Of a stretch of DNA of 53,254 nt, positions 9,861-52,527 are shown piece by piece. Position numbers and translations under genes: made by a program. Origin of the DNA: a virus (taxonomy: Duplodnaviria > Caudoviricetes); IMG/VR virus record IMGVR_UViG_3300048686_001049, positions 1-53,254 of that record, one strand, 5' to 3'. The notes beneath the pieces are model-generated. The model was not told where the DNA came from. It saw nothing but the letters and a program-made list of their open reading frames with translations, and ran no database searches. The stretch's first letter is position 1, and every line of letters starts with the position of its first letter.

Positions 9861-12800
9861 ATGACGGGGAAGCCGTTTCGCAAAACAAGAATAATAATTT
9901 CAGACAAATTAATATCTGCTCACACCGAGGCTAAAGATACTGATTTTTCTGCACATTTTTTTAAAAATGCCGTTTCTGAATCAATGAGTTCACCTCGCCT
10001 TGACGCTGATTTAGCCATTAAAAGCTTGGGTTCAAGCATTGGTTCAAAGAAAAAGCCAACATACGACAATACGGACAATAAGACCCGAACCAATTCAGGC
10101 GGTGAGCCAGGAATGGTAGTTACCCCCAATGGCTATAGATACCAACCAAAAGAAAAAAATGGTCCAGGCAAAGAACTTGTTTTGTTTCCCTCACAGAAAA
10201 GTCGAGAGTCAAACGGAAAAACCAGTAATTTTGGCTGGCTTGATAGAAAAAATACAAGCAGCATAAAAAACTATATTCAGCATCAAAAAGAACAGCCTCA
10301 AATAAGAATTAGAAAGTTTAAAGTAAACCCTAAGACGGACGAAATTATTCCTGGTTCAGACATAGAGATGTCTCCGTTCCGCAAAGATAATAATTCAGAA
10401 AACAATATTTCTGAAAAAATGCTTCCAGGAAGAACTCTTGGGTCAAGAGGAACATCACTAATAGGTAGGGCTGCAGGAAAATTCGGCATAGTAAGGGATG
10501 CTTTAAACAAGTTCAGATGCCCGCCAGGAACCCCAGCCGCAAACCAATTTACGGACCACATGGGAAGCAATTGCTTTGGTCAGTCAGCAGGAGACTTAGT
10601 TGACTTTGCGATAGACGCTTTTCAAGCAGCCCGCAAAGCTTTCACTGAACCAAACTCTCGAGAAACATTATCTAAATTTTTCAAAGAAGCAGCCTATGAC
10701 GCCGACAATGGAAGATTTGGTTCCTTTTTTGCTCGGACAATGTGGCGCGATGCTGACGGAAACAAAATACGTAATTTACGTAAATGGAACTCAGAACTAA
10801 GAGAGGGTGAATACAAAATATTTGCGGGGGGCATGGCAAATGCACAACTCGAACTTGAAGCTCAAGATAATCGAATAGCAAATCTTCGCGACTTATTGGG
10901 AGTACCAAGCACCCCAGAAACAAGAAAAAACAACGACGACCTTCATGAAATATTTAGGATTTTAAAAGAAAGAGGAATGCTAAATGTAACCCTTGGCAGC
11001 CCAAATCCCCAAGAAGAAGGAGAGGGACAACGACCTACCCCTGAGCAAGTAGCTCAAGTGGTTGAAGCAAGACTCAGGGCAGTACCAGGATTTAGCGAGC
11101 TATCAAGAGAGCAGCAAGAAAGAGTCATTGCAAATGATATTGAAAGATTCTATGAAACGGAACGAGCTTTGTTGGAAGGGTTTTTAGATGAATACGTCAA
11201 AAATCCAGAACATATGGGAACTATCAAAAACCTTATTTATGAATACAAGACGTCGCCACCAGCTGAATTTTTAGATGAAGCGAGCTATAACGTAAATGTC
11301 ATAAATGGCCAAGCTATTGGTGAAATAAGAATTGATATTCCTTTCATAATGCATTCACAAGAAACAATGCTGCCTCAACTGGCAGACAATGAAAGACTAA
11401 GAATTGATGTTGTTGGCGCAAAAACTGATTCTGAAGCGGCTAAACATCTTGGCGATTTCTTACTAACTACTGCTCAGCATTCCAAGCAACATGCGGCAAC
11501 AGTCGAAGAAAGAGGGTTTGCGCGACACATAATCAAACACGAAATAGCACACTCAATTCAGGCCAGGGTGTTCTTTGATGAAGCCAAAAGACAAATTAAC
11601 GAAAATGGCTTCATATCAATTGGGGATAAAAAAATTGAAAGCCTAGATAAATTAACTGGTTCAGATTTGCTTAACCTCATGACCGAATCAGCTGATTCCA
11701 TTAATCTTGAACAACTCAGTAAGGCTTTATCAAGAACAGAAAATATTATGTTCATGGCCGGGGAATACCCTCGAGACTACATAGACAAAGGTCGCGAAAT
11801 CACGGCAATTGAAGCAACAGCAGAGCTTTGGGCTCTAAGAAACGCAGGGCTGATTTGGGGCGACGATGTTGATGCCGCCCTTGAGTGGATGGACAATAAA
11901 GCTGACGGACGAATCGGAGAAAAAAGGGTTCGCTCCGATATTGAAACAATGAGAATTGTTGAAGATTCATATTATCTAAGCCCTGGCGAGTCTTCTGCTC
12001 CTTGGTACGTACCAGAAGACCCAGTTGCCACAGCCGCGGCGAAAAAACGAGCAGAAAATAAAGCGCTTAAAGGTGCTATTGAAAAATTGGACCACGACAC
12101 AATTATTGATGAACTTGCGCAACTCGAATTTAAAAAAGATGAAATTAATTTAAAAATCAATGCCGCAAAAGCCATAGGCGAAGACGTTTCTGATTTAGAA
12201 AAACAATTATCAGAATTGAAGAATGATGAAAAAATTATTCGTTCTGTATGGAAAAAGAAATATGGTACCGGCTCCGAAGACGCTACGGCTCTCAAGCTAT
12301 TAATTAAAAAAAGAAGAGAAGAACATGGTGCATTTACGCCAGACGTTCTTGAATCAAAAATTCGTGACAAAAAAATAATGGCAGCAAAAGCCGATGCGGC
12401 GACTATAGACAGCTTAGATGAATTGGTGCAAATGATGGCGGCTTATGACTTGGACATAAGACTTGCAACCAGCGATAAAGACAAAGGATTAAAGCGTGAA
12501 GAAAGAAAGGCATACCTTAGTCGATACCGAGCACTCCTTGATAAATCCGGCGACTCTCGTAGTTGGGTTGAGCAAAAGCGTGAAATGGAAGAAAAAATAG
12601 ACAGAATTCTTAGGCCTACAAAAACTGCGCCACTCAAAAAACCCAAAACCCCAACAACCGACAAGCAAGCTACAGATGTGGGTAATAAAGCAAGAGAAGA
12701 AGCGCTACGCACAGCTACACCTAGACAAAGAATTGCAGTTTCAGAATTTTCTGACTCACAAACATCTTCAGTAGCTCAGTTGTTTGATGCAGAAAAAAGG

Positions 12801-15800
12801 GATTCAGCTCTTGCTGGCATGAAGGAAAGAAATCAAAGGCTAAAAAAACAAGGCCTCAAAATCGACCCTACATTGCGAGGTGAGGCGTCACCCGAAGAGC
12901 AAGTCGAAAATATTCTTATTCCAACAATGGAAATTATCGACAAATCCAGAATTGGTACAAACCTAGAAGTAGAGGCAGAAATTGAAGTAGATGTTAATGA
13001 CGTTACTGGGGAAATTTCGCTTTCGGAAATCACGCATGACTCATTTATAAGCGGACGTGTTTTATCTAAAAAAAATCCATTTTCTGTAGATTCAAAAATC
13101 AAACCTCCAGTTAATGGAAAACAAAAAAGAAAAATAATAATTCAAACCACCGAAGAAGATAGAGGTATATTCCCTCATTGGTCAATGGATGTTGACAAAG
13201 ATGATAAGCGCCCACAAAAGCTAGTTTTACCTCCAGGCAAGTTGAAAGTCGTAGAAATACGAGACGATGGAACAGTAGTCGCTCAAATATCTGAACAGAA
13301 AGATACTGAATCAGTATTAGATACCTTGGTCGCTGCTGATATTAAAGGAACCAGGTTTCGTTCAGTTGCCGACAGGTACATAGTTGAGCGTAGAGAAAAC
13401 AAAATTCCACGCGAACAAAAAAGACCACTAAAAGCGCAAGAAACCCAAGACCGAGGAATTCTCGCCACTCGAGAATTAAAGAGAAGAGGTGGACGTTTTG
13501 GTCAAGGTCTTGATGATGACGATATAGATGAATCGTCTTCAAAACTTTCTTCTGGCAAGATTCGTACCAGAAGCCAGGTCAAGTCGGAAAGAATTAAGAC
13601 AGAAAAAGAAAACATTGCAGACGTCAAGGCTGTTCTCACAGGTAATGAACCAACTAAATTCAAATCACTTTCTCGTGACTCCTTGGACCCAGAGGTGGCT
13701 GAATTAATTATAAAAAACGAGCCAGAACAAATCATCAAATTAGTCGAAGACGCTGCAGTTGAACTACATAACAGCATGGATAAAAGAACAAGAGTCAGAA
13801 TGAGAGAGTCCGAACTCAATAATTTTGTTTCTTCTGGTACTTACAATCCAAGATTGCAAGCAGAAACAGTTCTGGATTCAGAATCAAAGCCAAACAGCAG
13901 GCTAAAGCGCAGGATTAAGGACTTTAGGGATAAGGCAAAACAAGCTGCCGCCGCCCAGGGGGCCAAAGATGAATTTAAAAAATTAAAAGAAGCAAATCTA
14001 GGCAACGGCGAACTACATAAACTGGATGATGCGACATTAATGAGCAACCTTGGCCTAGAACGCTCAAAACAAAAAAGTGTTATTTCAGACAATCCAATAT
14101 ATAGAACAAACTCTGCCGAACAAGCGATTGCTTTGTTGGCTCTTGGCTATGAAGTAGAGGTTCCAGACAGAGCCGAACGAAAGATGGTCAAAAATGCAGC
14201 GCTACAAACCGAAAAAGAACTTAAAACTCTTGCCGGAGCAGAAGCTGACAGTCTTGGGTTATCTGGTGACGAAAAAGATAAATACATTAAAAATTTTATG
14301 GAAACGCATGATATAGACCTTTGTGGCTTATATGAGGTCGGACGAAATCTCTTTTGTAACGAAAACATTGGAGTCAATCGTGAACACATGCCACAGAGCG
14401 GAGGCCCCACTAAGGGAGCCAATTCACCAGCGATGAGGGCTTTAATATCTGGCCATGTTGGCGGTGAGTATAAAGATGCCTTTAACCCTTCTTTGTCCAA
14501 GGAAGATAAGGAACGATATTTGGCAATAGTAAAAAATCTGGGAAATCCTGACACGTTTGCGAGCGTTAGTGAAGAAGATAAAAAATGGGTATTCGATAAT
14601 ACTGTTTGGAGCAAAGTCGAGGTTGTGACAGAACCCGAATTGATAAAATTTCTAAAACAAGCCCTTCCTGGTGGAGAAGACTCAGTCGTCCGTAAGTCAA
14701 AAAATCCAGACGACCTTTTTGCATCACAAAAACAATTAAAAAATGCACAAATTGATAAGACTGCTGAAAACATTTACGACCAATACATGGCCGCCAGAGA
14801 CAAGTGGGGCAAGCCGGGGACTGAAGAATTTATTAAAAATCGTCAAAATTTTTTGGATTCAAAAGAGGCATGGTTTCAGGGGCCAATACTTACGTCAAGA
14901 GATGGGTATGTAGTTGACGGACATCATCGATGGGCTGGCATCAAAATGCTTAATGACCATTTGCCAGAAGATGAAAAAATTCAAGTTCAAGTAAACGAAT
15001 TGCAAACATCTATTTTTGAAGCCCTGACTTTAGCAAAAGTATTTCAAGAACATCTGGAAATTAAAGGAAAAACTGTAGGAAAAGTTGTTCCTTATGAGGA
15101 TGGCGAAACCAAGCCAATGTCCAAAGCAGATTTTGATGAACATATGGCGCTATTAAATAATCAGATAAAAGAAAAAATTCAAGAAATAAAAGACAAAAAC
15201 ATCTATCCAATTAAAGTCAAAAATCTTGCAGCCAATAACGAACTACGTTCTCCGGGTCTCAAAGATAGTCGCGACAGGTCTGTGCGAATATACGGCATGG
15301 AATGGAAGCCAGAATACTCAGAGAACCAGGCACTTGAAGCATCCAAGAAATGGGATGGGTGGGATGATGTTCCACTTACGGAAATTGATTTGTCATCAGA
15401 GATTCGTCCGACCGAATCCCACTTAAAAGGTTCAGCAATAGATAGCGTTGTTTCCGGCGAAGTTCCTTTTAGGGAGGGTTATCACCCGCATATCGTCATA
15501 GACGTTGATGGGAAAATGTATGTGTCTGATGGACACAATAGAGTTGCCATGAATCGTGCTTTAGGGAATCAGAAAATACAAGCACGAGTAGTCGACCTTC
15601 GAAAAGTTGATGCACCATGGGGGGCGGTAGACCCAAGTAAGAAAAATTACAAAGGCTACGACCTTGTCGACCCACCAAATCCTTTTCCAAAAGATGGCAC
15701 ATATCCGGTCGAGATAGTGGAGGCAGCTAAACAGCAACGAGAAAAGATAGAAAAAGTAGAAAAAGAAATTACGGAAACATTAATAGACCTTGCAGAAAAA

Positions 15801-17810
15801 CATGGTTCTGTCTTAATTGGCTTAAAACATAGATTGAAGTCGATTAAGTCTTTAGCAAGAAAAATTAATGACGAAAAGGGCAATCGCTCAGCGACTGAAG
15901 CCGCAGAAGAAATGTCTGATGTTGTGCGCTACACAGCAACATTTCCCCCAGAAAATTATGTTTCTGGAGCATCTGGGGTTATAGAAGATTTAAAAAAATC
16001 AGGCTACAACCTGACTGTAAAAAATTACTGGCAAGCAGGAGACCCGTATCAGGGTATAAATATTGCCGCCGTTCATCCAAATGGAACAAGATTTGAATTG
16101 CAATTTCACACACCACAGTCCGCTATTGATAAAGAAGCCATTCATGAGATTTATGATGAATACAAAGTCGCCACTGACCCCAAAAAACGTTTTCAACTAT
16201 ATAACAGAATGACAAGAATGGCAGAGAGAATAGCAATCCCTGCCGAAAAAGATAAACTTTATGAAATTGGCGAAATAAGAACTCAGGAATTTTCCCCGAC
16301 AAGAACCAAATCAGAAATTTCTAAATTGGTTACTAGGGATTTTAATAGATATTCAAATAACCAGCTGATTACCAGAAAATCAGGCCAAATTATTGACGCA
16401 GCAATGAGAAGGGCTGGATTTGATAAAGATATTCGGGAAAAAGTTAATTTTGCTGTTCTTTTAATTTCGTCCTACAACAAGAACAATCAACACAATACTT
16501 TTTCATATTTCGTAAAAGACCTAATTAAAAATACTGGACCAACTATTGCCAGAATATCGATACAAGAAGTAGCCAAAAAAGAAAGAATACCTCTAGAGGA
16601 ATTAAATAAAATTTTATCAACAATTGACCAACAAGAATTTAAAAACATATCTAGCCGTGAGGATAAAAATTCCAAACTAGCTTTTAATATTGCGTATAAA
16701 ATTTTAAACGAAATACGCAGTTCTGTTGATATGAGAAAAGCCGATTATGAAACCAAAACTGCAAAAAATGATTTAGAAATGGGTCAAAGATTTAAATTCA
16801 AAAAAGGGTCTTCTGCTGATAATTATCGATTAAAGTACGAAGAAGAAATAGGTATCCCAGCAGACACCCCAGCCGCGCTTCGTCCAGTAACTGGATATGT
16901 TGTAAATAAATCACATATTGAGGAAAAGAAAAAACGAGTACAAAAAACTGGCTCTGGGAATTATGGAGCTGACGCGATTTTCGAAATACAAGATAAAGAC
17001 GTCATAGGTGATGGACTTACCGCTTCTGGGGAAATAGAAGTAATTCTACGTCCAGAAACAGCGAACAGAGTTGCCTATGGCAGGGGCAACTCGTTTGACA
17101 CAAGACACCAGCCTGTGTTGCTTGACTCTACGGAAAGAGAAGATATCGTAAACGCAGTCACGGTTAGTGACGGATTGGGTAAGGATGACGAAAACCTTGA
17201 TGCCATGCTCCACTTACTCGGTTCATCAAAAGACAAAAACTATTCACATGTTGGTGCTAAAAGAGATTCAAATGGCAGAATGAAGCCGGTAGGAAAAATT
17301 GACCCGTCAGACGACAGGGAGCATGAAGTCTTTGAAGCGAACATTCTTGGTGGGTTCTCAAAAGATGAAGTTGAAGGAATTCATTATCCGTTTTCAAAAG
17401 TTGCAAAACTTGCAGAAAACGAAGACGTTTCGGATGTCGTAAATATTGAAATTCTTAAACCAAGGATGCAAAAACTTGGATTTACTTCAGACGAAATTCA
17501 ATATATATCAGTTGTGTCAAAACAATCACCTATCGTTACTCTAGGAGTTCAGAAATTAAAAGAATACAGAACTGCTCAAAAAATAAAGAAAAAGTATGAA
17601 TCAATGGGGATTGGTTATGTTAAATTTGCTCACCCAACTGGTATAAATATTGAAAATCCAAAGACATATAACAAAACTGCGAACGTTAACGATAGTCCTG
17701 AGCAAGTAATTAAGCAAAATATTTACTCAGAACTAGACGAAGCGTTAAGGGATATTGTAAAAAAAATGAGAAAAAACAAAACACGAGAACTTGTTGGTAA
17801 CCCAGAATGA
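9861..17810 (+). CDS. Giant polyvalent protein 2 (2649 aa): zincin HEIAH, degenerate ART-like, two ParB-like, RelA/SpoT-like nucleotidyltransferase and DUF3626-like domains
   Basis: HEIAH (11538), VVDGHHRW (about 14910), VSDGHNR (about 15522), RLKSIKSLARKI...SDVVRYT...YQGIN...FELQFHT (15831-16112), RPVTGY...FEANILGG; a single LSSG at 13545. Confidence 0.85.
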   Translation: MTGKPFRKTRIIISDKLISAHTEAKDTDFSAHFFKNAVSESMSSPRLDADLAIKSLGSSIGSKKKPTYDNTDNKTRTNSGGEPGMVVTPNGYRYQPKEKNGPGKELVLFPSQKSRESNGKTSNFGWLDRKNTSSIKNYIQHQKEQPQIRIRKFKVNPKTDEIIPGSDIEMSPFRKDNNSENNISEKMLPGRTLGSRGTSLIGRAAGKFGIVRDALNKFRCPPGTPAANQFTDHMGSNCFGQSAGDLVDFAIDAFQAARKAFTEPNSRETLSKFFKEAAYDADNGRFGSFFARTMWRDADGNKIRNLRKWNSELREGEYKIFAGGMANAQLELEAQDNRIANLRDLLGVPSTPETRKNNDDLHEIFRILKERGMLNVTLGSPNPQEEGEGQRPTPEQVAQVVEARLRAVPGFSELSREQQERVIANDIERFYETERALLEGFLDEYVKNPEHMGTIKNLIYEYKTSPPAEFLDEASYNVNVINGQAIGEIRIDIPFIMHSQETMLPQLADNERLRIDVVGAKTDSEAAKHLGDFLLTTAQHSKQHAATVEERGFARHIIKHEIAHSIQARVFFDEAKRQINENGFISIGDKKIESLDKLTGSDLLNLMTESADSINLEQLSKALSRTENIMFMAGEYPRDYIDKGREITAIEATAELWALRNAGLIWGDDVDAALEWMDNKADGRIGEKRVRSDIETMRIVEDSYYLSPGESSAPWYVPEDPVATAAAKKRAENKALKGAIEKLDHDTIIDELAQLEFKKDEINLKINAAKAIGEDVSDLEKQLSELKNDEKIIRSVWKKKYGTGSEDATALKLLIKKRREEHGAFTPDVLESKIRDKKIMAAKADAATIDSLDELVQMMAAYDLDIRLATSDKDKGLKREERKAYLSRYRALLDKSGDSRSWVEQKREMEEKIDRILRPTKTAPLKKPKTPTTDKQATDVGNKAREEALRTATPRQRIAVSEFSDSQTSSVAQLFDAEKRDSALAGMKERNQRLKKQGLKIDPTLRGEASPEEQVENILIPTMEIIDKSRIGTNLEVEAEIEVDVNDVTGEISLSEITHDSFISGRVLSKKNPFSVDSKIKPPVNGKQKRKIIIQTTEEDRGIFPHWSMDVDKDDKRPQKLVLPPGKLKVVEIRDDGTVVAQISEQKDTESVLDTLVAADIKGTRFRSVADRYIVERRENKIPREQKRPLKAQETQDRGILATRELKRRGGRFGQGLDDDDIDESSSKLSSGKIRTRSQVKSERIKTEKENIADVKAVLTGNEPTKFKSLSRDSLDPEVAELIIKNEPEQIIKLVEDAAVELHNSMDKRTRVRMRESELNNFVSSGTYNPRLQAETVLDSESKPNSRLKRRIKDFRDKAKQAAAAQGAKDEFKKLKEANLGNGELHKLDDATLMSNLGLERSKQKSVISDNPIYRTNSAEQAIALLALGYEVEVPDRAERKMVKNAALQTEKELKTLAGAEADSLGLSGDEKDKYIKNFMETHDIDLCGLYEVGRNLFCNENIGVNREHMPQSGGPTKGANSPAMRALISGHVGGEYKDAFNPSLSKEDKERYLAIVKNLGNPDTFASVSEEDKKWVFDNTVWSKVEVVTEPELIKFLKQALPGGEDSVVRKSKNPDDLFASQKQLKNAQIDKTAENIYDQYMAARDKWGKPGTEEFIKNRQNFLDSKEAWFQGPILTSRDGYVVDGHHRWAGIKMLNDHLPEDEKIQVQVNELQTSIFEALTLAKVFQEHLEIKGKTVGKVVPYEDGETKPMSKADFDEHMALLNNQIKEKIQEIKDKNIYPIKVKNLAANNELRSPGLKDSRDRSVRIYGMEWKPEYSENQALEASKKWDGWDDVPLTEIDLSSEIRPTESHLKGSAIDSVVSGEVPFREGYHPHIVIDVDGKMYVSDGHNRVAMNRALGNQKIQARVVDLRKVDAPWGAVDPSKKNYKGYDLVDPPNPFPKDGTYPVEIVEAAKQQREKIEKVEKEITETLIDLAEKHGSVLIGLKHRLKSIKSLARKINDEKGNRSATEAAEEMSDVVRYTATFPPENYVSGASGVIEDLKKSGYNLTVKNYWQAGDPYQGINIAAVHPNGTRFELQFHTPQSAIDKEAIHEIYDEYKVATDPKKRFQLYNRMTRMAERIAIPAEKDKLYEIGEIRTQEFSPTRTKSEISKLVTRDFNRYSNNQLITRKSGQIIDAAMRRAGFDKDIREKVNFAVLLISSYNKNNQHNTFSYFVKDLIKNTGPTIARISIQEVAKKERIPLEELNKILSTIDQQEFKNISSREDKNSKLAFNIAYKILNEIRSSVDMRKADYETKTAKNDLEMGQRFKFKKGSSADNYRLKYEEEIGIPADTPAALRPVTGYVVNKSHIEEKKKRVQKTGSGNYGADAIFEIQDKDVIGDGLTASGEIEVILRPETANRVAYGRGNSFDTRHQPVLLDSTEREDIVNAVTVSDGLGKDDENLDAMLHLLGSSKDKNYSHVGAKRDSNGRMKPVGKIDPSDDREHEVFEANILGGFSKDEVEGIHYPFSKVAKLAENEDVSDVVNIEILKPRMQKLGFTSDEIQYISVVSKQSPIVTLGVQKLKEYRTAQKIKKKYESMGIGYVKFAHPTGINIENPKTYNKTANVNDSPEQVIKQNIYSELDEALRDIVKKMRKNKTRELVGNPE

Positions 17811-36702: not shown

Positions 36703-36764
36703 ATAATTAATAAACCTTGTTATATCGACTTCAGGTCGACAGAGCATACAATAGATATACCACT

Positions 36765-39700
36765 ATGTTCGAACCAATCATTATAAAGCTTGACTACTCG
36801 CCACGAGACGAAAGACATAGCAAGCAGATAAAAAGCGTGGCATCTAGACTCGGTAAAAGAATTGGTAGAGGCCTGGCGGGCAGGCCAAATATTGGTAAAA
36901 ACAGAAGAACGATTGGTTCTGGAAGAATTGACATACCCACTGGTGGTGTGCGTGGATACAAGAGACCAACAGGAAATCGTCGCGACATTGACAGAGATGG
37001 CTGGGCAGACGAAGGCACAACTAACCCTGTATGGGTCGGGCTGAGCGGTGGGCGAGATAGACCAATTATTGAAACCCAAAGAGCTAGACCAAAAATAAAT
37101 TTAAATAATCAAAAAATAAATGAAAGAAAAAAAATTCGCCAAAAAATTAAATATGGCGAAAGTTCTTTGGATGGTAAATTAATTAGTAAAAAAAACGGCC
37201 CCAAATGGTTGAATGGATTAAGCAATGAGCAGATTTCAAACATCCTCGTCCCCGACTCGTATCAGACTTATTCTCAAATGCTGGCCGATGGATTCGGTGT
37301 CGACAAAGAGACTATAGAAAAATATCTTGAATCTAGATGGGGGGTTGGAAAGCCTTGGTTGGAAATTGATTACTCGGAAAGTTCAACTAAGCAATTAAAA
37401 CAAGCACTCAAAACTGCTCTTGACGAATCGCCTATTTTTTCTTGGGCCGTAAGAAATTACGGCTCACCAACATATACGGTAATGACCAGAAAAAGTGCAG
37501 AAACATACAACAATCGAGATGCAGTAAGGCCATTATATGATGCACTCAAAAAAATGTATCCAGATGCACCTGGAGAGCCACAATTTGCCGCAAGCAATCA
37601 TCTTGATTTTGAAATGGTGACTTTTAATCCAATCAATGTGATTGATAAAAAATCATGGCAAACAAATGAACCAATTTCAAGCAGCTTTCAAACGTCTAAA
37701 TTACCATCTAGCTCCGACACCGTAATAGATAGAAGCATCTCTGGAACTATTTTGCATGAATGGGCTCATTGGTATCACTCTGAGATGCTTTTGGCAAATA
37801 TTGAAAGTTCCGAAAATAAAAAACGGTCACCCAAATCTCTAGTTAATCCTCAAGATTCAGATTTTGCCGAAAAAATAAAAATTGCACTTGAGTACAATTC
37901 TGATAATGGAAACATGAATCTTCATTCAACAAAAAAACCACTAGAAGATTCACAGAACGAGCCAAGGACGATTACATCTTATGGGCACGTGAGCAGGAAG
38001 GAAATGTTTGCAGAAGGGATGCTTGCCTATATGCACCCTAATGAGCAGCTAAAACTTAAGGCAATAAATAAAAAATTGAGACAAGATATAGAGACAATTT
38101 TAGCTGGAGATAAGGGCGTTGATGCGTGGAAAGACAGTAAGGCAAACATAAGAAGAGAAAAAAATATTTTAAGTTCGGGTAGAAAAAATCGTAAGCTAAC
38201 AAAATTGTCATCAGGTTCAAAAACTGAGGAACCCGAAAGACCAACGTACCCAAGACACCCTAGCTATGGTCCATTCCTTGATGGCGCTGATGACGTGTTT
38301 GCGGATGTAAAAAACTGGAAAGAATTCAAAGAAATTTACGATAATTTAGAAATAAATTTCTTTGACTACGAAACCACTGGATTGGTTTCTGACGAATTTC
38401 GACAATCGTCCGGTAATGGCGCTCCAGTGCAGTTTGGTGTAACAAAGACCAAAGGCGGCAAGGAAATTGGTCGACTAAATATTTTTATGAACCCGGGAGA
38501 AGAGCTTGGGGATTGGTCGAAAAAAAATCTTAAAAACAAAGACGGAGAACCACTTACTGACGAATGGCTGTCATCTCAAATATCGATAGCTGATGCGCAT
38601 AAAAAATTAATCGAATTTGTGGGTCCTGATGCAATTTTTGGAGTTCAAAATGCAGTATTTGATAAAACGGTACTAGAAGATGCACTGACATCATCAGGCA
38701 TCGAATGGAGACCAAAGGGCTGGGTAGATACGAAAGTTGTATCCGACTTAGTAATTCCTAAATGGACAAAAGAAAATCAAGACGCACCTTGGACTACTGA
38801 CGGGAAAACTGGTGAAAAAATTCCGTCAAGTAGCCTAAAGGCTTTGACCGAATATCTCAACATAGACCTTGGGAAAAAACACCATACAGCAGACGCTGAT
38901 GCGGCAGCCACATCAGAGTTGATGTCAAAAATTATTGATAAAGCAATTGAGAAAAATTGGAGCAACGATATTTTTGATAAAAATTGGCGCGACCAAAAAA
39001 TCAAAGACAAATTAGAAAACTATCAACAAAAAATTATTGATTTTGAACAACAAAAAAGTAATTGGATTTCTGAAACGTCGCCTAAAAAATCCACAGTGCC
39101 AAAAGAAGTGGAGAAAAAAGAATTTGGTTTTGGTAGACTATCTAGTGGTACCACTTCGTACAAGGGCCGTCACGAATCTCCTGATGCGTCAAGTGGGGCA
39201 CCTCTACACAACCTGGCTAATGGCGCCATATATCCAGAAGATATCTATGGTCCAAATGGGGCGAACCTTTATGGGGGCGCATTCCCGGATTTAGCTCAAA
39301 AAGCTGTTGCTATTTTTAGAAAACTCCGCAATAAACCAGACTCTGAATTAACCATATATAGGGCGGTCCCAAGGGGCAAAAACATTAAAGAAGGCGACTG
39401 GGTAACGATTCTCCCCGAATACGCAAAAATACATGGAGATAGTTGGTTGAAAGACAACTATGAAATAGTGACCAAGAAGGTAAAAGCAAAAGAATTATTT
39501 AATGAAGGTAATTCACTTCTTGAATTTGGTTATCACTCAAAATTGTCTTCTGGCAAATACGATGGTGCCCCTACGTATAAAGGAAAAGTCTGGAAAGATA
39601 GAAAAAACGAATTAGATGGCCCTGTGTGGCCATTTCGGTCTCAAGCCAAACAGTACCCAGACGATGGTCCGTCGGGAATTTCATATTTTAAAGGCGTAGT

Positions 39701-42700
39701 TGATGATTCAACATGGGTTGATTGTCTGCTTTATAGAGATGATTCAGGAAAAGTTATTGGCATCTTAAATCATTATCCATTTGCTCTTGTGGACCCAGAT
39801 GACCCGCGAATTGTGGAAAGACGCGGGAATATTAATATCTTTATTGACCCAAAACATCAAGGTAAAGGTATAGCGACAAAACTTGTAGATGAAGCAGTTT
39901 CTCGATATAACGTCGACCTACGCAGGCAGCGATATAGCGAAGATGGCGCAAATTTTATAAACAGGTATATACGTAAGCTTCCCGAAAATAGGGATAAATC
40001 AAAACTTTCATCTGGAAGCCAACCACGAATAAATCTTTCTGATGAAGAAAAACGCGAAATCATAGCTATCGCATCTCAAAGAACCGATGATTTCTCAAAA
40101 AGTGTTGTTGAGCAATTCAGAAGGAATGGAAAGCTCTCAGATAGACAATGGAACGCCCTTAATAAAGCGACTCTTAGACGTTCAAGATTAAGTTCTGGAA
40201 TGAATACCCCTGAACTCAGCGAGATGAGCAAGCAAAGACTTCAACGCCGAATTGACTCATATGAAGCCGCAGTAAAAAAGGGAGATGGTAGTGAGTCTAA
40301 ATTACCATGGGATAAAAATGGGAAAATTAAAGAAAAACCAATTATTGTTTCTGAAGTAGATGACGACTACGACGATGACGAAGAAATGAGTGCAGAAGAA
40401 AAAGAAAACCAAGCCGCATATCGCGAAACTTCAAATATTAGTCCTGCAGAGATGGCTAGAAGAATAGAGCGAGAAAAAGCATCCAAGGAAAGACTCTCAT
40501 CTCCTGAGTACTTAGAGGAGAGTCGCCTTAGGCGTGTAGCAAGAAATAAAGGTAAGGAAACCAGCACGCACAACGCAGATGGAACGTTGAAAACAGAAAA
40601 TAAACCGAAACTATCGTCTGGTAAAACCAACAGAGCCAATAGAAGAGCCAATAATTCAAGATTAAGCTCGGGTAAAAACACTGACACCGAGCCTCAGTTT
40701 TTGCCAATCGAAAACCTAACAGCGGCACGAGACTCGAATACAGATACAAATCTACAAACACCCGCAAAGAGACGGGTGTATGTGAAGTCAAAGATACCAA
40801 AGGTCGGTCGGTTTAAAGAAGCAGACTACCCGTTAAACGTTCAACTGTCTATCGTAGAAGACTATAAAGATAAAAGAAAAACACTTTCTTATATTGCAAA
40901 AAAACACAATGTCTCTATTAGTGTCGTCCAATTTTTGGCACGGCAATATAATTTGCCATACAGGGTAAACAATCCGAAGTCTCCTCGACGACAAAGAATT
41001 ATTGAAGCCATCAGAAACGATATGCCGTTTGAAGAAATTATGGAAAAATTCAATACCTCAAGAGAAGAAGTGATAAAACTTAAAAATATTTCAGAATCTG
41101 CTAAAGCAAGAAAATTAAGACTAACTAGAGAAAAGATTAGAAGACAAAAAAAAGAAGAAAAAATAATCCAACTATTTAATGATGGTTTAAGAATCACCGA
41201 GGTTGCGAGGCTCACCAAGATGGATATCTCGGCAGTAGCCGACGTGTTGCTTGCCAACGAGGGAACAAAACCAAAACTAATAGCGAGAAGGGACGGAAGT
41301 CAGCCTTATCGGTCGATTCTTATACCACAGGTTCGTGAACTATTTAAAAATGGACTGAACATCGCCCAGATTGGAAAAACACTAAAAAAAGACATTAAAA
41401 TAATCCGCAAAATTGTAAATGAAGATGAGGAATTATCAAAATTGCAAAGAGAAAGAATTAAGAAAAGATTTTTACTTGCTCAAATTAGTGAGGAACTTAG
41501 AGAATTTTTCATAAACGGTGGGAGCATGGAAGGCGCAATTGAAAAATTTGGTTTATCACGAAAGCAGATTAAACAATGGAGAGAAAGACAAGCGGCACAA
41601 TCACAAAAACAACCAGGAATACCCCGACTACCCCGACTACAAAGAGGACTCGAGAATGGAACGTTGAAAACAGAAAATAAACCGAAACTATCGTCTGGCA
41701 AAACCAACAGAGCTAACAGAAGAGCCAATAATTCAAGATTAAGCTCGGGTCAATCACCAGTTTTTGATGACCAAGAAAAAAAACAAATACTTGACACTTT
41801 GGAAAAAGAATTCCCCGGCGGAATAACTAATACGATAGCGAAAATTGCAGACTATTCGGGAAGTAGGTTTCAAAATAATAAAAATGACCAAGTGGAGCTT
41901 AGTCCAGAAGAAAAAAAAGCTGTTAAAGCACTTGAAGATTTAGGCAAAATAATTGACCAAAAAATATCAAAATTGATTAATGAAAGAAAGACCACAGAAG
42001 GCTCGAAAGAATCTCAAGAAATACGTTTATTATCTGAAAAAGAAAAAACATACCAAAAAGTTGCTAGTTATTTTAACGCAATACAAAAGGTTATTGACAG
42101 CAAGTATGAGGATGTGGCCAAAATCGACAAACAGGTAAGGAAATCAATAGTTTCCAACATATATAAAATTCCAAAAAAAACGTCAAACATAGACATGGAA
42201 TATATGATGAATAGCAACAAGATATCTGGCTCCCATTTAGTTCAACTAATAAAAGATGTCAGAAAAAATTTAACTGCCGGAGAACTCCTTAAGATAGATG
42301 ATGCCTGGGATGGCTTCTTTGACGGCCAACCGGTAGTCAATTTTAGTGATAGCACCCGCTATTACATTAAGAGTTGGAAAGACAGGCTATACCTTACGGA
42401 TTTAGTTAGTGAAGCCGATATGGCATTTTTAGAATTGAAAGAGAATAAAGCAATCACACACGACATCATGAGGACTCTAAATCTTGCTGACCAAATATTA
42501 AAATCTCTTATTCAACAAACTCAAAGAGAAGAACGTAAAATTTCAGAATTATCAGATGCGGAAGTATTGGATTTTATAGAACGAGAAATATATCAAAACG
42601 GAGAGGCTTTTGGCCCGAAACTTGGTTCAAAGAAATATCGTCGAAACATATTAACCGGTCAAGCGTTTACTTCTGGAGAAGATTCCCCAAATCCACTTCC

Positions 42701-43976
42701 CGAACTTAATGAACCGCCTTTAGTTGCCGTGTTTAATGAAAAATCAGCAAAAGATTTACTCATTAAGACAATACGGGAAGCACTTGTAGACGAAGACGTT
42801 AATCAAGTATTCAATAAATCACTTAAAGCAAGAGAAGATATTGGTGTTGATTATGATGAAAAGCTTGGCGAAGGTGTCAACTCGCAATACCTATTGCCAC
42901 AAAATCTTCCATTCATAGAATTTTTAAAATTATATAATGAGAAACGTTCTATTTTTCAAAGGGAAACATTTGAGCTATTAAAAGAAACACAATCTCTGAC
43001 CGAGCGAGGCTCTCTGCCAGAGCTTACAAAATATGGGCTTCAGGATTTCCTAGAAAGACAAGAAGCAGAACTAAAAAGAGAATTATTTGTTCAGGCCTTG
43101 GGGGAATTAGGTGTTAGATTTACGCAACCAGAAAATGTAAAAAAAACAGTAGTTCGTCTTTATATGCAAAGATTGAACGACTTTTATCTATGGGCTAAAA
43201 ATCTTAACCCTAATGAAGACTTCGGTAAATACAATCCGTATGAGTACATAGGTGGCGAGAAGGGACAGCGACACGCAACGACCATCCCATTAATGAACAA
43301 AGTTTTATCATTAATCCCCGAGAATTTAACCAATGGTTCATTGATTGTTGAATTACCGCCCAAAGAAGCTGAAAGACTTGCAAACCTAGGAGCCGCAGAA
43401 ACGTTTGGTTATTTAGGGAGACAACGAGCCATTTCAAAATATTTTTCTGACGCATGGAATAAAAACCCTCTTGAAAAAGGAGGTCATAAATTAGGTATAA
43501 TTTGGCGTCTTGTGCCAGGAAAAAACAGGGCTCATGCACATAATGTTCTAAACGGAAAAGTTTTAATTACCCAAGAACCAGCACCAGTAGATGGTCCCAC
43601 AGATGATTGGGAGTCAGTGGCTTTGCACGAAATATCTCACGGCGTTGAATACGCCAACCCGGTTGTGACCGCGCTCGAATGGATGTACTGGGCGTCTAGA
43701 AGAAAAGCGAATGAGCAAATAGTAACGTTACGACATAAAAACGGGAAAAAATATAGAGATAAAAGCGAAGTTGGTATAGTTGATGAATGGGGAAACAGCT
43801 ATGCGGGCAAAATATATCAAGGAAGACCATTTGATGCTTTAGAGATATTTACCACCGGTATGCAAGCGATATTTTACGAAAATACAAGCAAAAATGCAGA
43901 CCCTTCACATAGGGCGTTTACGATTGGTGTTCTGATAGCGACTGGACTTGCCGATAAGGGAGGGTCTAATGGCTAA
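36765..43976 (+). CDS. Giant polyvalent protein 3 (about 2400 aa): leader, zincin, DEDDh exonuclease, ART-like, GNAT, tandem HTHs and C-terminal zincin, with 10 LSSG motifs
   Basis: Likely ATG at 36765 (TTG 36717 possible); HEWAH (37755)...SYG...EMFAE; FDYETTG...QNAVFD...HHTADADA; YRAVP..GDWVT..YAKIHG; IDPKHQGKGIATKL; HEISH (43626)...EIFTTG. Confidence 0.88.
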   Translation: MFEPIIIKLDYSPRDERHSKQIKSVASRLGKRIGRGLAGRPNIGKNRRTIGSGRIDIPTGGVRGYKRPTGNRRDIDRDGWADEGTTNPVWVGLSGGRDRPIIETQRARPKINLNNQKINERKKIRQKIKYGESSLDGKLISKKNGPKWLNGLSNEQISNILVPDSYQTYSQMLADGFGVDKETIEKYLESRWGVGKPWLEIDYSESSTKQLKQALKTALDESPIFSWAVRNYGSPTYTVMTRKSAETYNNRDAVRPLYDALKKMYPDAPGEPQFAASNHLDFEMVTFNPINVIDKKSWQTNEPISSSFQTSKLPSSSDTVIDRSISGTILHEWAHWYHSEMLLANIESSENKKRSPKSLVNPQDSDFAEKIKIALEYNSDNGNMNLHSTKKPLEDSQNEPRTITSYGHVSRKEMFAEGMLAYMHPNEQLKLKAINKKLRQDIETILAGDKGVDAWKDSKANIRREKNILSSGRKNRKLTKLSSGSKTEEPERPTYPRHPSYGPFLDGADDVFADVKNWKEFKEIYDNLEINFFDYETTGLVSDEFRQSSGNGAPVQFGVTKTKGGKEIGRLNIFMNPGEELGDWSKKNLKNKDGEPLTDEWLSSQISIADAHKKLIEFVGPDAIFGVQNAVFDKTVLEDALTSSGIEWRPKGWVDTKVVSDLVIPKWTKENQDAPWTTDGKTGEKIPSSSLKALTEYLNIDLGKKHHTADADAAATSELMSKIIDKAIEKNWSNDIFDKNWRDQKIKDKLENYQQKIIDFEQQKSNWISETSPKKSTVPKEVEKKEFGFGRLSSGTTSYKGRHESPDASSGAPLHNLANGAIYPEDIYGPNGANLYGGAFPDLAQKAVAIFRKLRNKPDSELTIYRAVPRGKNIKEGDWVTILPEYAKIHGDSWLKDNYEIVTKKVKAKELFNEGNSLLEFGYHSKLSSGKYDGAPTYKGKVWKDRKNELDGPVWPFRSQAKQYPDDGPSGISYFKGVVDDSTWVDCLLYRDDSGKVIGILNHYPFALVDPDDPRIVERRGNINIFIDPKHQGKGIATKLVDEAVSRYNVDLRRQRYSEDGANFINRYIRKLPENRDKSKLSSGSQPRINLSDEEKREIIAIASQRTDDFSKSVVEQFRRNGKLSDRQWNALNKATLRRSRLSSGMNTPELSEMSKQRLQRRIDSYEAAVKKGDGSESKLPWDKNGKIKEKPIIVSEVDDDYDDDEEMSAEEKENQAAYRETSNISPAEMARRIEREKASKERLSSPEYLEESRLRRVARNKGKETSTHNADGTLKTENKPKLSSGKTNRANRRANNSRLSSGKNTDTEPQFLPIENLTAARDSNTDTNLQTPAKRRVYVKSKIPKVGRFKEADYPLNVQLSIVEDYKDKRKTLSYIAKKHNVSISVVQFLARQYNLPYRVNNPKSPRRQRIIEAIRNDMPFEEIMEKFNTSREEVIKLKNISESAKARKLRLTREKIRRQKKEEKIIQLFNDGLRITEVARLTKMDISAVADVLLANEGTKPKLIARRDGSQPYRSILIPQVRELFKNGLNIAQIGKTLKKDIKIIRKIVNEDEELSKLQRERIKKRFLLAQISEELREFFINGGSMEGAIEKFGLSRKQIKQWRERQAAQSQKQPGIPRLPRLQRGLENGTLKTENKPKLSSGKTNRANRRANNSRLSSGQSPVFDDQEKKQILDTLEKEFPGGITNTIAKIADYSGSRFQNNKNDQVELSPEEKKAVKALEDLGKIIDQKISKLINERKTTEGSKESQEIRLLSEKEKTYQKVASYFNAIQKVIDSKYEDVAKIDKQVRKSIVSNIYKIPKKTSNIDMEYMMNSNKISGSHLVQLIKDVRKNLTAGELLKIDDAWDGFFDGQPVVNFSDSTRYYIKSWKDRLYLTDLVSEADMAFLELKENKAITHDIMRTLNLADQILKSLIQQTQREERKISELSDAEVLDFIEREIYQNGEAFGPKLGSKKYRRNILTGQAFTSGEDSPNPLPELNEPPLVAVFNEKSAKDLLIKTIREALVDEDVNQVFNKSLKAREDIGVDYDEKLGEGVNSQYLLPQNLPFIEFLKLYNEKRSIFQRETFELLKETQSLTERGSLPELTKYGLQDFLERQEAELKRELFVQALGELGVRFTQPENVKKTVVRLYMQRLNDFYLWAKNLNPNEDFGKYNPYEYIGGEKGQRHATTIPLMNKVLSLIPENLTNGSLIVELPPKEAERLANLGAAETFGYLGRQRAISKYFSDAWNKNPLEKGGHKLGIIWRLVPGKNRAHAHNVLNGKVLITQEPAPVDGPTDDWESVALHEISHGVEYANPVVTALEWMYWASRRKANEQIVTLRHKNGKKYRDKSEVGIVDEWGNSYAGKIYQGRPFDALEIFTTGMQAIFYENTSKNADPSHRAFTIGVLIATGLADKGGSNG
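40579..41750 (+). repeat. 95-bp direct repeats (40579-40673 and 41656-41750) flanking an HTH cassette
   Basis: Three mismatches, all synonymous; each copy encodes GTLKTENKPKLSSGKTNRANRRANNSRLSSG. Confidence 0.95.
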
Positions 43977-44322
43977 TTATGAGCAAAAAAAAATATATGG
44001 TTGGTTGAAGTCTTCAGAAAACAATATATCCGTAGAGGAAACCAATGAAGGGGTAATTTTTGAACCTCTAAGTTTTGATTTTTTCGCCAGGAACTACATC
44101 ATTCCGCCATCGTTTTTGGCCTTAGGGGGCACTTATATCGTATACACCAACCCGCCCCCTGAGTCTGGCAGCTTTGATAGTGGTCAAATTTATATGCACA
44201 TAATGAATGAATACGCCAAAACAAAAAACGACACACTAGAGATTAATGACGTTGTTGGGATTGATGAACAACCATCACCAGAGCTGGACATTCATCCCGA
44301 CAACACACAGATTGTCTATTAA
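43969..44322 (+). CDS. Small acidic protein coupled to polyprotein 3
   Basis: GGGAGG RBS; ATG at 43969 lies just inside the upstream gene, whose stop is 43974-43976. Confidence 0.75.
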   Translation: MANYEQKKIYGWLKSSENNISVEETNEGVIFEPLSFDFFARNYIIPPSFLALGGTYIVYTNPPPESGSFDSGQIYMHIMNEYAKTKNDTLEINDVVGIDEQPSPELDIHPDNTQIVY

Positions 44323-44370
44323 TATTTTGTATTAAAATAATGTACTATCTTCTAATGGAAAATCTCAATT

Positions 44371-48651: not shown

Positions 48652-48933
48652 GTGTCACAAAAGGGAACATTCGGAAAAATTACAAAAGCCGGCGAAACGC
48701 GCAACTGTATTTATGTGATTTGGCACACAAAAGACCCAGTCAATACCTGGTATGTCAATTCAATGATTAATGGTCAAATTGCCAGATGTAGATTAATTTC
48801 TTTACTGGACCGCCGTCCACATGAAATCAATAGTGGGTTTACTCAGGATGCCTGGTCGTTTGATGTACTTGACGAAAAAACATTCCAAAAAATGGCTGGA
48901 GGTGGGATACCGATACCACCAAGAGATTTATAG
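48652..48933 (+). CDS. Hypothetical protein
   Basis: AAGGA RBS, GTG start. Confidence 0.65.
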   Translation: MSQKGTFGKITKAGETRNCIYVIWHTKDPVNTWYVNSMINGQIARCRLISLLDRRPHEINSGFTQDAWSFDVLDEKTFQKMAGGGIPIPPRDL

Positions 48934-48952
48934 AGAATAAAAAGGAGCACAT

Positions 48953-49627
48953 ATGACTAAAACGCTTAATCAATTAGAATTTCGCATAAACGAAGAGGTA
49001 AAACGCCTTAAATCCTTACGTCTCACAGACGGTCCAGAAACACAATACGACCATAGCTATCGCATCTGGGTTCCGAGGTCTCGCGTTATTGGTTGCGATG
49101 GCTTAGTCAGGACGACGCGTAAACGCAATGAGGAGCCGACATCCCATCCGAAGGATTCGGATTATTTACGTTTGTACTTAGCTTTTATGAAAATGCGCTC
49201 TGATGGAGCGTATGCTAAGTGGAACATTGGTGGCGATGGACACACTGATTACTGGTGCAATCTTCCGGAGCTCAAGCAGCCAATGATTACGCACTACAAA
49301 GGACGCATTATATATAGCGACCATCTCGTTACTGGCATGACTTGGACAAAGAGTTGGGACTGTGTTCAGGACAACGTTTTGATTGATATTCAGAATGACG
49401 GTCTAGATATCGCAACCAAACGACTTGCAGAAGCTGGGTTTGACTTTAAGGTAATCGAAGGAGTATTTAACCCAAGGGACAACATACAAATGGTTAACAT
49501 TATTTTTCGTGGTGGTGGTTGCATTGATGGGGATATCAATGAACCAGGTTTTACAGCATGGACGTGGATTGACAATGCAATGGATGAAGGCCCACAGGAG
49601 CCACCAGCGATAACAGAGGGCCTGTAG
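48953..49627 (+). CDS. Hypothetical protein
   Basis: AAGGAG RBS; 224 aa; stop codon lies inside the downstream tRNA. Confidence 0.75.
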   Translation: MTKTLNQLEFRINEEVKRLKSLRLTDGPETQYDHSYRIWVPRSRVIGCDGLVRTTRKRNEEPTSHPKDSDYLRLYLAFMKMRSDGAYAKWNIGGDGHTDYWCNLPELKQPMITHYKGRIIYSDHLVTGMTWTKSWDCVQDNVLIDIQNDGLDIATKRLAEAGFDFKVIEGVFNPRDNIQMVNIIFRGGGCIDGDINEPGFTAWTWIDNAMDEGPQEPPAITEGL

Positions 49628-49704: not shown

Positions 49705-50478
49705 ATGTTAAAAAAATTAAAACCTATACAAATTTGTTCCTACTGTCTAAGGGTTGGGTCAAGCTCTAGTGACCCAGACGGCAATAAATGGCATATTGAC
49801 CACGTCATACCTAAAACGAAATATGCCGGAAGCAGCAAAGACCTATTTAATCTAGTCAAATCTTGTACGAATTGTAATTTAAAAAAAAGCAACAAATTAG
49901 GGGTTATGCCGCAATATGGCTCCCTATATGCTGATGGAACAACGCACGATGAACTAAAGGAGAAAAAACTAATGCTGATGGTAGAAGATGAATATGAAGT
50001 GTGTCTAGAACCAAAAAACAGAACAGATATTTCAATTAATCAAGCGGCAAATGAGCACTGCGTGTCCATAGACACTGTTAGGCGAGCAATTTATAATGGT
50101 CAAATAAGTGGCGTTTATAAAGTAAAAAGAAAAAATGGGTTACAGTATTTTTTCCCACGTAATTCCGCTAATAAGTTATGGCGAACCGGGAAAACAAACG
50201 ATAATTCAATATCAATAAAAGAATGTGCGGAAGAATTGGGTCTATCCGAAAAAACGGTCCGACGCATGATTAGAAAAAATATTTTGGCATATGCAGACAA
50301 GGTATGGGGGATGCACGGATATGAGTGGACGATACCTGTCGACTCTGTAAATTCGTTCAAAAACCTAAATACCAACAAAAACAATAGTAAAGAAAACAAA
50401 GAAATTAATGAATTAAAAAAAGAGATTATTCGTCTTAAAAAAATAATTAACGCAATTGTCGATTTGGGGGAGAAATAG
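49705..50478 (+). CDS. HNH endonuclease fused to two excisionase/MerR-like HTH domains
   Basis: CSYC...HIDHVIP...NLVKSCTNCNLKK; ISINQAANEHCVSIDTVRR and ISIKECAEELGLSEKTVRRMI. Confidence 0.85.
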   Translation: MLKKLKPIQICSYCLRVGSSSSDPDGNKWHIDHVIPKTKYAGSSKDLFNLVKSCTNCNLKKSNKLGVMPQYGSLYADGTTHDELKEKKLMLMVEDEYEVCLEPKNRTDISINQAANEHCVSIDTVRRAIYNGQISGVYKVKRKNGLQYFFPRNSANKLWRTGKTNDNSISIKECAEELGLSEKTVRRMIRKNILAYADKVWGMHGYEWTIPVDSVNSFKNLNTNKNNSKENKEINELKKEIIRLKKIINAIVDLGEK

Positions 50479-52428: not shown

Positions 52429-52527
52429 TCATCATCATCGCAACACATCGTCATCATCGCCCTCGTGGCATATCAGTAGTTCGCAAGTGCTACGGGTGTG
52501 CTACGGGTGAATACATACATACACAAC

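Follow-up and report, generated by a model that had tools for sequence, protein, structure and literature searches.

How does a phage gene that strings many unrelated domains into a single polypeptide gain, lose and exchange those domains and still keep its reading frame? The question is raised by open reading frame C (ORF C), the gene for a polyvalent (multi-effector) protein of 2419 amino acids (aa) at 36717..43976 on the plus strand of the IMG/VR virus record IMGVR_UViG_3300048686_001049 (Duplodnaviria; Caudoviricetes), as defined from the ORF list and its translation. We refer to the whole stretch analyzed, that is, the complete linear record of 53,254 nucleotides (nt), with an estimated completeness of 36%, as the window, and all coordinates are given on it. 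An earlier note on this DNA had proposed that a linker containing the tetrapeptide LSSG was recently duplicated on both sides of a cassette of several helix-turn-helix (HTH) units and that such linkers double as recombination joints. Comparison with relatives supports the second proposal and changes the first. The best explanation, and in our judgment a likely one, is recombination at the linkers combined with selection, with the repeat in the window as the footprint of one swap and LSSG as a likely cleavage signal.

Split at LSSG, ORF C reads A-(12)-B-C-D-E-F-(17)-G-(17)-H, where letters stand for modules and bracketed numbers for short spacers. Its domains comprise a DnaQ-like exonuclease (phrog_192, aa 546-777, 5.9e-19), a ParB C-terminal domain (phrog_2579, aa 803-946, 5.1e-30), a GNAT acetyltransferase (aa 1000-1064) and an HTH array matching HTH_28, and it carries two HExxH motifs (HEWAH and HEISH). 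A second LSSG-punctuated polyvalent protein, ORF A (1..7983, plus strand), has its 5' end cut by the start of the window; it contains ArdC-N (PF08401, 2.7e-26), the zincin MPTase-PolyVal (PF18818, 7.5e-40), a UvrD helicase and sigma-70 region 4. The relatives of ORF C were loci L003-L006 from IMG/VR and L013-L016 from JGI metagenomes, and those of ORF A were loci L017-L023. Twelve ORF C homologues were compared, namely, the window protein, the ORF of L005 and ten database proteins (P0002-P0011). Sequencing runs containing the sequence amounted to 20 rows from 11 studies of lake, freshwater and drinking-water metagenomes; these were examined as Logan contigs (k=31-type), and per-contig depths were not used. 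INPHARED phage records gave no match to the whole gene (megablast) or to the HTH cassette (tblastn), and scanning IMG/VR with a degenerate DNA pattern of the linker returned only three contigs that were already known.

The repeated linker and the HTH cassette

A repeat search found two direct copies of 98 nt on the plus strand, at 40579..40676 and 41656..41753, that were 96% identical and separated by 1077 nt from start to start. Trimmed to 95 nt, the copies lie at 40579-40673 (0 mismatches) and 41656-41750 (3 mismatches), so that 92/95 nucleotides are identical, with a longest common exact run of 42 nt; a match to the 95-nt repeat occurred in 0/100 dinucleotide-preserving shuffles. All three differences are synonymous (GGT/GGC for Gly, GCC/GCT for Ala and AAT/AAC for Asn), and a fourth one, at repeat position 96, changes the first codon past the second LSSG (AAA/CAA, Lys/Gln). 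The offset of 1077 nt equals 359 codons, both copies are in frame within ORF C, and each of them encodes (D/N)GTLKTENKPK-LSSG-KTNRANRRANNSR-LSSG. What the earlier note had read from the letters, namely, two 95-bp repeats with three synonymous differences, each coding for a double-LSSG linker and offset by a multiple of 3, is borne out by the repeat search, the shuffles and the in-frame translation.

The upstream copy is made up of the last 11 codons of module F, which supply the pre-linker GTLKTENKPK, and of the double-LSSG linker LL1 (LSSG-KTNRANRRANNSR-LSSG), whose LSSG codon quartets are located at 40611..40622 and 40662..40673 (both plus strand). The second of these uses the 12-mer TTAAGCTCGGGT, the sole one found twice among the 25 LSSG sites of the giant ORFs. 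The downstream copy, LL2, stands behind the HTH cassette as a linker copy of the upstream type, F-tail pre-linker included, with plus-strand quartets at 41688..41699 and 41739..41750; the homology to locus L016 stops at the last base of the latter.

Between both linkers lies module G, the HTH cassette (40674..41655, plus strand), formed by a low-confidence leader of ~50 residues and five three-helix HTH units. The stretch between the linkers (aa 1320-1661, window 40674-41699, 342 residues), taken alone, matched Pfam HTH_28 at 1.8e-12, above the gathering score, and HTH_23 at 1.1e-08. An AlphaFold2 (AF2) model of the cassette based on 9 homologues had 15 helices and a mean predicted local distance difference test (pLDDT) value of 71; residues 1-50 and 323-342 were below 50, the low-confidence tail being the linker, and the residues around both linkers were below 50 as well. 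The claim that several HTH-like units are enclosed by the repeats was thus confirmed by the Pfam matches and by the model, in which the five HTH-like strings each fall on helices 2 and 3 of a three-helix unit. Their recognition-helix regions start at 40881, 41025, 41190, 41358 and 41523, and the module also has an internal 36-nt repeat with a spacing of 168 nt. Foldseek of the whole cassette model against PDB gave no match at E ≤ 0.001, and the best rows, with E values of 0.1-1, were sigma factors and paired or Tc3-type bipartite HTH domains.

As a separate observation, a contig of X15 (drinking water, 90-99% identical) enters the HTH cassette at 40671 from a different upstream sequence, which, translated by eye, reads ...REKDGPSLSS before G-KNTD. 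It represents a further left neighbor of the cassette and resembles the stub ...GGPSLSSG of P0003 and the tail ...DGPSLSSD of P0008.

LSSG punctuation, module architectures and break points

LSSG sites number 10 in ORF C and 14 in ORF A, compared with 0.075 and 0.092, respectively, expected from composition. The third giant ORF of the window (9861..17810) has a single one, at 13545. Outside the giant ORFs, there are two in the frame of ORF A (frame 0), one in plus-strand frame 1 and two, one and one in the minus-strand frames. Since 24 distinct 12-mers encode the 25 sites of the three giant ORFs, LSSG is conserved as a peptide and not as DNA. Of the 24 sites in ORF A and ORF C, 20 are preceded by K or R and 15 are followed by R or K, and every module boundary of ORF C has LSSG; the peptide, in the form [KR]-LSSG-[KR], marks the module boundaries.

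Similar punctuation was found in proteins recovered through module A, the conserved N-terminal module of ORF C (36717..38180, plus strand), which has HEWAH at 37755-37769 and is a candidate zincin-type peptidase co-occurring with LSSG. When this module was searched against 1.84 billion representative proteins, there were 80 matches at E ≤ 0.001; in most of them, the protein was 2,000-6,500 aa long and the position of the module varied. LSSG headed the list of commonest 4-mers in 39 of the 72 module-A proteins of at least 700 aa and was absent from 19, counts that were made by hand on proteins all selected for module A, with no control set. Those without LSSG were mostly remote homologues, and several carry GLAS/LASR, GFAS/FASR, GLSS/LSSR or GLRS instead. 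In these sequences, the motif variant shifts as module A diverges, which would fit a cognate, candidate co-evolving peptidase.

We then cut all homologues after every LSSG and labeled the pieces by blastp, which yielded 10 architectures among the 12 ORF C homologues, differing by whole modules. Beside the window, P0002 (L016 type) reads ...E-F-(17)-G-(17)-J, and P0003 (the type of L003, L004 and L013) reads ...D-(20)-I-E-F-(17)-G-(17)-J; L016 and L013 carry the 164-aa module J in place of H. P0004 and P0008 have ...D-I-(17)-E-G, P0005 has ...D-E-Y-G, and in P0006, a D module fused to an extra domain is followed by E-G. The remaining ones are A-(23)-B-D-E-K-(17)-G-(17)-H (P0007 and P0009), ...D-L-(8)-I-(17)-E-Y-G-(17)-M-F-N (P0010), ...D-I-(17)-E-K-(17)-J-H (P0011) and ...D-I-(17)-Y+J-(17)-E-K in L005, which runs off its contig. 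A fragment, P0090, consists of the tail of G, the 17-residue spacer and F, that is, the window order reversed.

The order A-B-(C)-D was constant in 12/12 homologues (C is missing from P0007 and P0009), while everything behind D varies. The 17-residue spacer joins 10 module pairs (F-G, G-H, G-J, I-E, I-Y, J-E, K-G, K-J, G-M and G-F), and cassette G has four kinds of left neighbor and five kinds of right end. Module E (61 aa, 40017..40199, plus strand), 90-100% identical in all 10 homologues carrying it, is joined directly to G in P0004, P0006 and P0008. Along similar lines, P0011 has J where P0007 and P0009 have G plus a linker, with the same K-(17) on the left and the same H on the right, so that the other cargo between the same linkers that the earlier note had suggested looking for does exist (K-17-G-17-H versus K-17-J-H). 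In ORF A, there were 5 architectures in 6 genomes, with modules replaced, inserted or deleted between LSSG marks. One 87-aa module of the window is reduced in L017, L019, L020 and L021 to its first 11 residues, standing between two LSSG, and some double-LSSG linkers are therefore stubs of lost modules.

Identities to the window differed strongly from module to module within the same protein. P0009 is 49% identical in A, 51% in B, 60% in D, 90% in E, 40% in G and 73% in H, with a linker peptide that is 100% identical. P0008 is 91% identical in A, 94% in B, 88% in D and 95% in E, with 45% in G, no H and a linker peptide at 86%. Such discordance is to be expected if cassettes move between lineages, and very unequal rates could contribute.

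In order to locate the exchanges, the window was compared with 8 loci by blastn, and the ends of high-scoring segment pairs (HSPs) of at least 150 nt and at least 80% identity that fell inside ORF A or ORF C were taken as break points. Those that coincided with the edge of a locus or of the window were discarded, and those within 5 nt of one another were counted as one, which left 19 distinct break points. Eleven were within 5 nt of an LSSG quartet, a zone of 3.5% of the ORF length (binomial P = 5e-12), and 17 were within 35 nt, a zone of 12.1% (P = 3e-14), although not all break points are independent events and the P values are indicative only. At the intermediate distance of 12 nt, the count was 13/19. 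Insertions and deletions at LSSG boundaries are thus clearly present in the relatives.

Three cassettes of other genomes are also flanked by direct repeats, each composed of the linker and a few codons of the neighboring module: module I in L013 (56-nt linker repeats, 89% identical, offset 783), an extra module in L020 (42 nt, 95%, offset 321) and another one in L018 (34 nt, 94%, offset 279). The window has a single copy of the repeat at each of the three sites, as would be seen both after a deletion between repeats and before any insertion. Together, the clustering of 17/19 break points near LSSG and these three repeat-flanked cassettes, single copy in the window, support the proposal that linkers act as joints of module gain, loss and swapping.

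An in-frame joint between LSSG sites was also found among the sequencing runs. One contig of X15 joins 40193 to 40668 and skips 474 nt, in frame and from LSSG to LSSG, at a depth of 17.4 and with 84 letters on the shorter side of the joint. The joint equals the E-G junction ...RRSRLSSGKNTD... of P0004, P0006 and P0008. A second joint in the same sample, from 40193 to 40617 (423 nt skipped), was set aside, its shorter side being just 20 letters long.

Origin of the downstream linker and competing explanations

The 17-residue double-LSSG spacer brackets cassette G on both sides in 5/12 homologues (the window, P0002, P0003, P0007 and P0009), and P0007 and P0009 have the same spacers, yet their cassettes are only 40% identical to that of the window. 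Since the same spacer flanks G in so many homologues, both linkers are old and do not stem from a recent duplication, as the earlier note had supposed. What is recent is that the downstream linker of the window is a copy of the upstream type. Over a 66-nt core, the window LL2 had 3 differences from the window LL1, 5 from the LL1 of L016 and 10 from the LL2 of L016, while the LL2 copies of L016 and L013 differed from each other at a single position. In L013, the upstream and downstream linkers were only 82% identical over 89 nt.

The sequence on the left side of the downstream linker points the same way. In L016, L013, P0007 and P0009, it is preceded by a native pre-linker, KTG[IV]DS[KS], which is the tail of the cassette. 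In the alignment, the window shares the cassette tail with L016 and L013 until ...GGACTC and then changes to upstream-type sequence, including 32 nt of the tail of F; GTLK, found before both window linkers, is the native C terminus of free-standing F homologues. Furthermore, the window LL1 and LL2 share the synonymous variants CTA and AGC TCG, which never occur together in the six linker copies of L016, L013 and L005 (the second copy of L005 has TCG alone). Judging from these comparisons, a copy of the upstream type, 32 nt of the F tail included, has overwritten the LL2 of the window.

We also looked at what lies beyond LL2. The homology between window and L016 runs along the gene at 92-99% in 300-nt bins, and its 97.6% block ends at 41750. 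It resumes at 44340, and the gap (41751-44339) holds module H and a small ORF (2589 nt) in place of J (494 nt). The overwriting of LL2 probably coincided with a swap of the C-terminal cargo. With 3 differences in 95 nt, the event is, as far as the sequences tell, recent on the scale of the ~2.4% divergence between window and L016.

The history is most simply accounted for by one event, in which F tail, linker, H and the small ORF would have replaced the KTGIDSK pre-linker, the linker and J behind the HTH cassette, with the right junction of the swap in homologous DNA behind the gene. The donor parent would then have read F-linker-H, and a deletion between the two repeats would produce this very allele. 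More generally, new module adjacencies would arise by recombination between phage genomes at the linkers, exchange would use the 30-100 nt of linker-coding similarity where present and microhomology elsewhere, and selection would keep only in-frame products that preserve the modules. The 98-nt repeat could now itself mediate in-frame loss of the HTH cassette (359 codons). At the protein level, LSSG would act as a cleavage signal at which the chain, once injected or packaged, is divided into separate effectors, and the co-occurring HExxH module A may do the cutting. We put forward only tentatively the wider proposal that the LSSG linkers are dual-purpose joints, at once a cutting signal for a zincin and an island of DNA similarity for in-frame module exchange between diverged phages, with the window repeat as a fresh footprint that involved an F-linker-H parent.

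Several observations weigh against this account. The left junction of the window LL2 (...GGACTC followed by GAGAATGGAACG...) is without evident homology, and this step would have been illegitimate or microhomology mediated. Two break points out of 19 are far from any LSSG, at window 21 and 497 toward the N terminus of ORF A, and at the repeat-flanked cassettes, insertion and deletion are indistinguishable without a rooted phylogeny. Where a single LSSG forms the joint, the partners vary as much as at the long linker: F, G, Y or K can follow E, and behind D stands E, I, L or a 20-residue stub. Such single-LSSG joints share only ~12-15 nt of variable codons, so long linker homology is not required. 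Nor is linker DNA better conserved than its surroundings, with 84.6-86.2% identity between window and L005 against 86.8% in the flanks. Given this and the equal variability of both kinds of junction, linker homology helps at most, and selection for in-frame products must contribute. An F-17-H allele, with the HTH cassette precisely deleted, was not found among the 12 homologues, P0090 or the 7 short module-F proteins. The alleles lacking 40674-41750 that the earlier note had envisaged thus did not turn up in that set, and the run contigs cannot bridge the repeat. On the side of processing, modeling aa 120-488 of module A with AF2 (8-row alignment) gave a mean pLDDT of 40.5, too low for the model to be used. 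A cleavage signal is the most likely role of LSSG, but this role, like packaging and injection, rests on analogy.

These points lead to another possibility, that of a selection filter only. Recombination would be random and illegitimate, the linkers would merely be the places where in-frame products with intact domains survive, and the repeat would have no mechanistic part. The variable single-LSSG junctions, the left end of LL2, the unexceptional conservation of linker DNA and the 24 different 12-mers in 25 LSSG sites are all in its favor. We nevertheless hold it to be rather unlikely, given that four cassettes in four genomes have flanking direct repeats (34-98 nt, 89-96%), all in register, that three of the four have single-copy counterparts in other genomes, and that the 17-residue spacer is reused at 10 module pairs, with a peptide that is 100% identical where the flanking modules are 40-73% identical. 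Constraint on the protein alone, with copies that are alike through a conserved linker peptide and no exchange of DNA, could appeal to P0007 and P0009, in which the spacer KTNRANRRANNSR is identical despite a cassette identity of 40%. It is contradicted by the synonymous sites: the 92/95 identical nucleotides include them, the same pair is 82% identical in L013, and the window LL2 is nearer to LL1-type copies than to the positional LL2 of its relatives. This makes it highly implausible.

Intragenomic gene conversion, in which LL1 overwrote LL2 within one genome independently of any cargo swap or cassette movement, would explain the synonymous variants shared by LL1 and LL2 and not found together in the linkers of relatives, as well as the fact that the two window copies are each other's nearest relatives. 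However, 32 nt of the F tail were copied as well, and the tract stops precisely at the start of the swapped cargo H. There is nothing homologous to the left of the F tail to anchor a conversion, and because of this, a later conversion is less likely than a single swap; we regard it as improbable. An artefact of assembly, a contig chimera joined through the repeat, has to be considered since the record was assembled from a metagenome and the Logan contigs break at the repeats, ending at 40608 and 41685 and restarting at 40644 and 41721, with none spanning a whole linker. Neither the linkage of the three pieces nor a deletion junction can therefore be read from the contigs, a further point against the proposed history. 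The junction of the cassette tail with the upstream-type pre-linker (~41647-41661), on the other hand, was matched with 0 differences by contigs X3 record 23 (40644-41685) and X6 record 30 (41336-41685), which come from other samples, X6 from another study. In addition, the copies differ at 3 positions with a longest exact shared run of 42 nt, and the order G-17-H recurs in P0007 and P0009. The artefact that the earlier note had allowed for is thus countered at the junction and not along the full repeat, and we find it scarcely credible. Recombination at the linkers with subsequent selection, leaving the window repeat as the footprint of one swap, remains the explanation that we prefer.

Known systems, other modules and neighboring genes

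In order to put these results into perspective, we compared ORF C with systems of similar build. Polyvalent proteins are giant polypeptides of phages and conjugative elements that string together unrelated effector domains (Iyer, Burroughs, Anand, de Souza, and Aravind 2017, PMC5512222). Their processing is suggested there to be autoproteolytic, through zincin peptidases within the chain, and a cassette-like "recombinational variability" is pointed out for one kinase-bearing group; in the main text, "linker" has 0 occurrences, and no conserved interdomain motif or motif-based recombination is described. ORF A has the signature ArdC-N and MPTase-PolyVal domains of the class, and ORF C combines a DnaQ-like exonuclease, a ParB-type domain, GNAT and HTH in a record with a capsid gene; for ORF C, the class signature consists of phrog_2579, the two HExxH motifs and leads from the ESM Atlas only. 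The difference is that here the junctions are a defined peptide, [KR]LSSG[KR], at which natural variants break.

A comparable exchange logic is known from the T-even adhesin gp38, in which glycine-rich motifs (GRMs) separate hypervariable segments (Trojet et al. 2011, PMC3157838, citing Tetart et al. 1996 and 1998). Short conserved motifs separate variable segments there as well, and the logic of exchange is the same as at LSSG linkers; natural exchange points are near the motif, as are the 17/19 within 35 nt of LSSG here. The GRMs are the structural core of a single domain, and the loops swapped are tens of residues long. LSSG, in contrast, lies in disordered linkers between autonomous domains of 60-740 residues whose order and number change, and by analogy, it probably serves as a cleavage signal.

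The tips of CdiA and Rhs are set off by VENN or PxxxxDPxGL motifs. In polymorphic toxins (Rhs, CdiA, and MuF), a constant N-terminal part is followed by variable C-terminal cargo exchanged by recombination, according to the available parts of the sources (PMC3482391, PMC3967940, and PMC5576092). ORF C resembles them, within the same limits, in its constant A-D head and its variable tail behind a conserved motif, and, relative to L016, in a small gene behind the cargo that changes along with it, H and ORF 43968..44322 standing in place of J. It differs in having several cassettes in series that change order, instead of a single tip at the C terminus, in being carried by a lytic-type phage genome and not by a bacterial locus, and in the appearance of its modules, which look, from their sequences, like host-takeover or anti-defense enzymes and DNA binders.

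In the available text of PMC7824862, "domain shuffling" was met only as the title of a reference. A literature search pairing LSSG with phage found no related paper, and work beyond the literature searched is possible. Within that literature, modular recombination bounded by linkers would be of a known kind and appears undescribed before in the polyvalent protein class. Polyvalent proteins are believed to face host defenses before any other phage protein does, and the founding paper, in its available text, is without an explanation of their fast domain turnover. If our reading is true, a junction peptide that marks both processing and exchange would offer a simple criterion by which giant ORFs could be divided into their functional units and a mechanism for the rapid turnover of effectors between related phages sharing a habitat. 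Any module placed between two linkers would be released as a working protein, which would make the giant genes plug-and-play arrays of injected effectors and a natural model by which effector cassettes could be assembled or exchanged in the phages of laboratory strains.

The modules next to the cassette gave few leads. Modules A, E, F and H had nothing in Pfam at E ≤ 0.001, and phmmer of H and A against PDB sequences gave nothing below E = 0.2. The ESM Atlas provided leads only, to zincin-like families for A and to "DdrB domain protein" (0.95) for H. Module H (41751..43973, plus strand) is the C-terminal cargo, with 741 aa and HEISH at 43626-43640; its profile, scanned in IMG/VR, gave 568 pattern matches and 0 relatives. 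The small ORF exchanged together with H relative to L016 (43968..44322, plus strand) overlaps the stop of ORF C, with its ATG after AAGGGAGGG. The region 43948-44322 had no Pfam or PHROG match, and the ORF could be a partner or immunity-like gene of H.

Module F (141 aa, 40200..40622, plus strand), the left neighbor of the cassette, also has free-standing homologues. A short-protein search gave 7 matches: five of 88-90 aa (P0091-P0095), one of 48 aa and one fragment of the form G-17-F. The five are 71-79% identical to the C-terminal half of F (window 40350-40610) and end in ...HNADGT[LKI]K[QK], 4/5 of them at ...HNADGTLKQ or ...GTIKK, where the pre-linker of the window begins; one is located on a contig of 43.6 kb. 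Modules may be recruited from, or released to, separate genes.

At the other end of the gene, the first ~100 residues of ORF C (window 36765-37121, aa 17-135) recur near the start of ORF A, and window 286-483 is ~74% identical in nucleotides to the start of the ORF C of L016. These N-terminal ~100 residues alone match many other giant proteins, sometimes internally near residue 550, and are a candidate virion-targeting or anchoring segment. In the third giant ORF, of 2649 aa, a match to head morphogenesis (MuF-like) covers aa 1947-2147, and either the build or the processing of this ORF would differ from that of ORF A and ORF C.

Other genes of the record code for a major capsid protein, a class II-type ribonucleotide reductase, a primase/helicase, SSB and a WhiB-like regulator, the last of which, given the distribution of WhiB, presumably hints at an actinobacterial host. 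A 224-aa ORF (48933-49566) and an HNH endonuclease with HTH_17 (49705..50478; gap 49717-50468) have no counterpart in L016, which is 95-97% identical, and this difference is probably a mobile homing-endonuclease insertion polymorphism. The HNH ORF was also the only nearby candidate for a site-specific or endonuclease-driven exchange, an idea that we rejected, as nothing ties it to the linkers. Finally, ~65 nt at 52526-52593 match two places in L016 (24028-24091 and 25027-25093) at 78-80% identity and may be a dispersed intergenic repeat.

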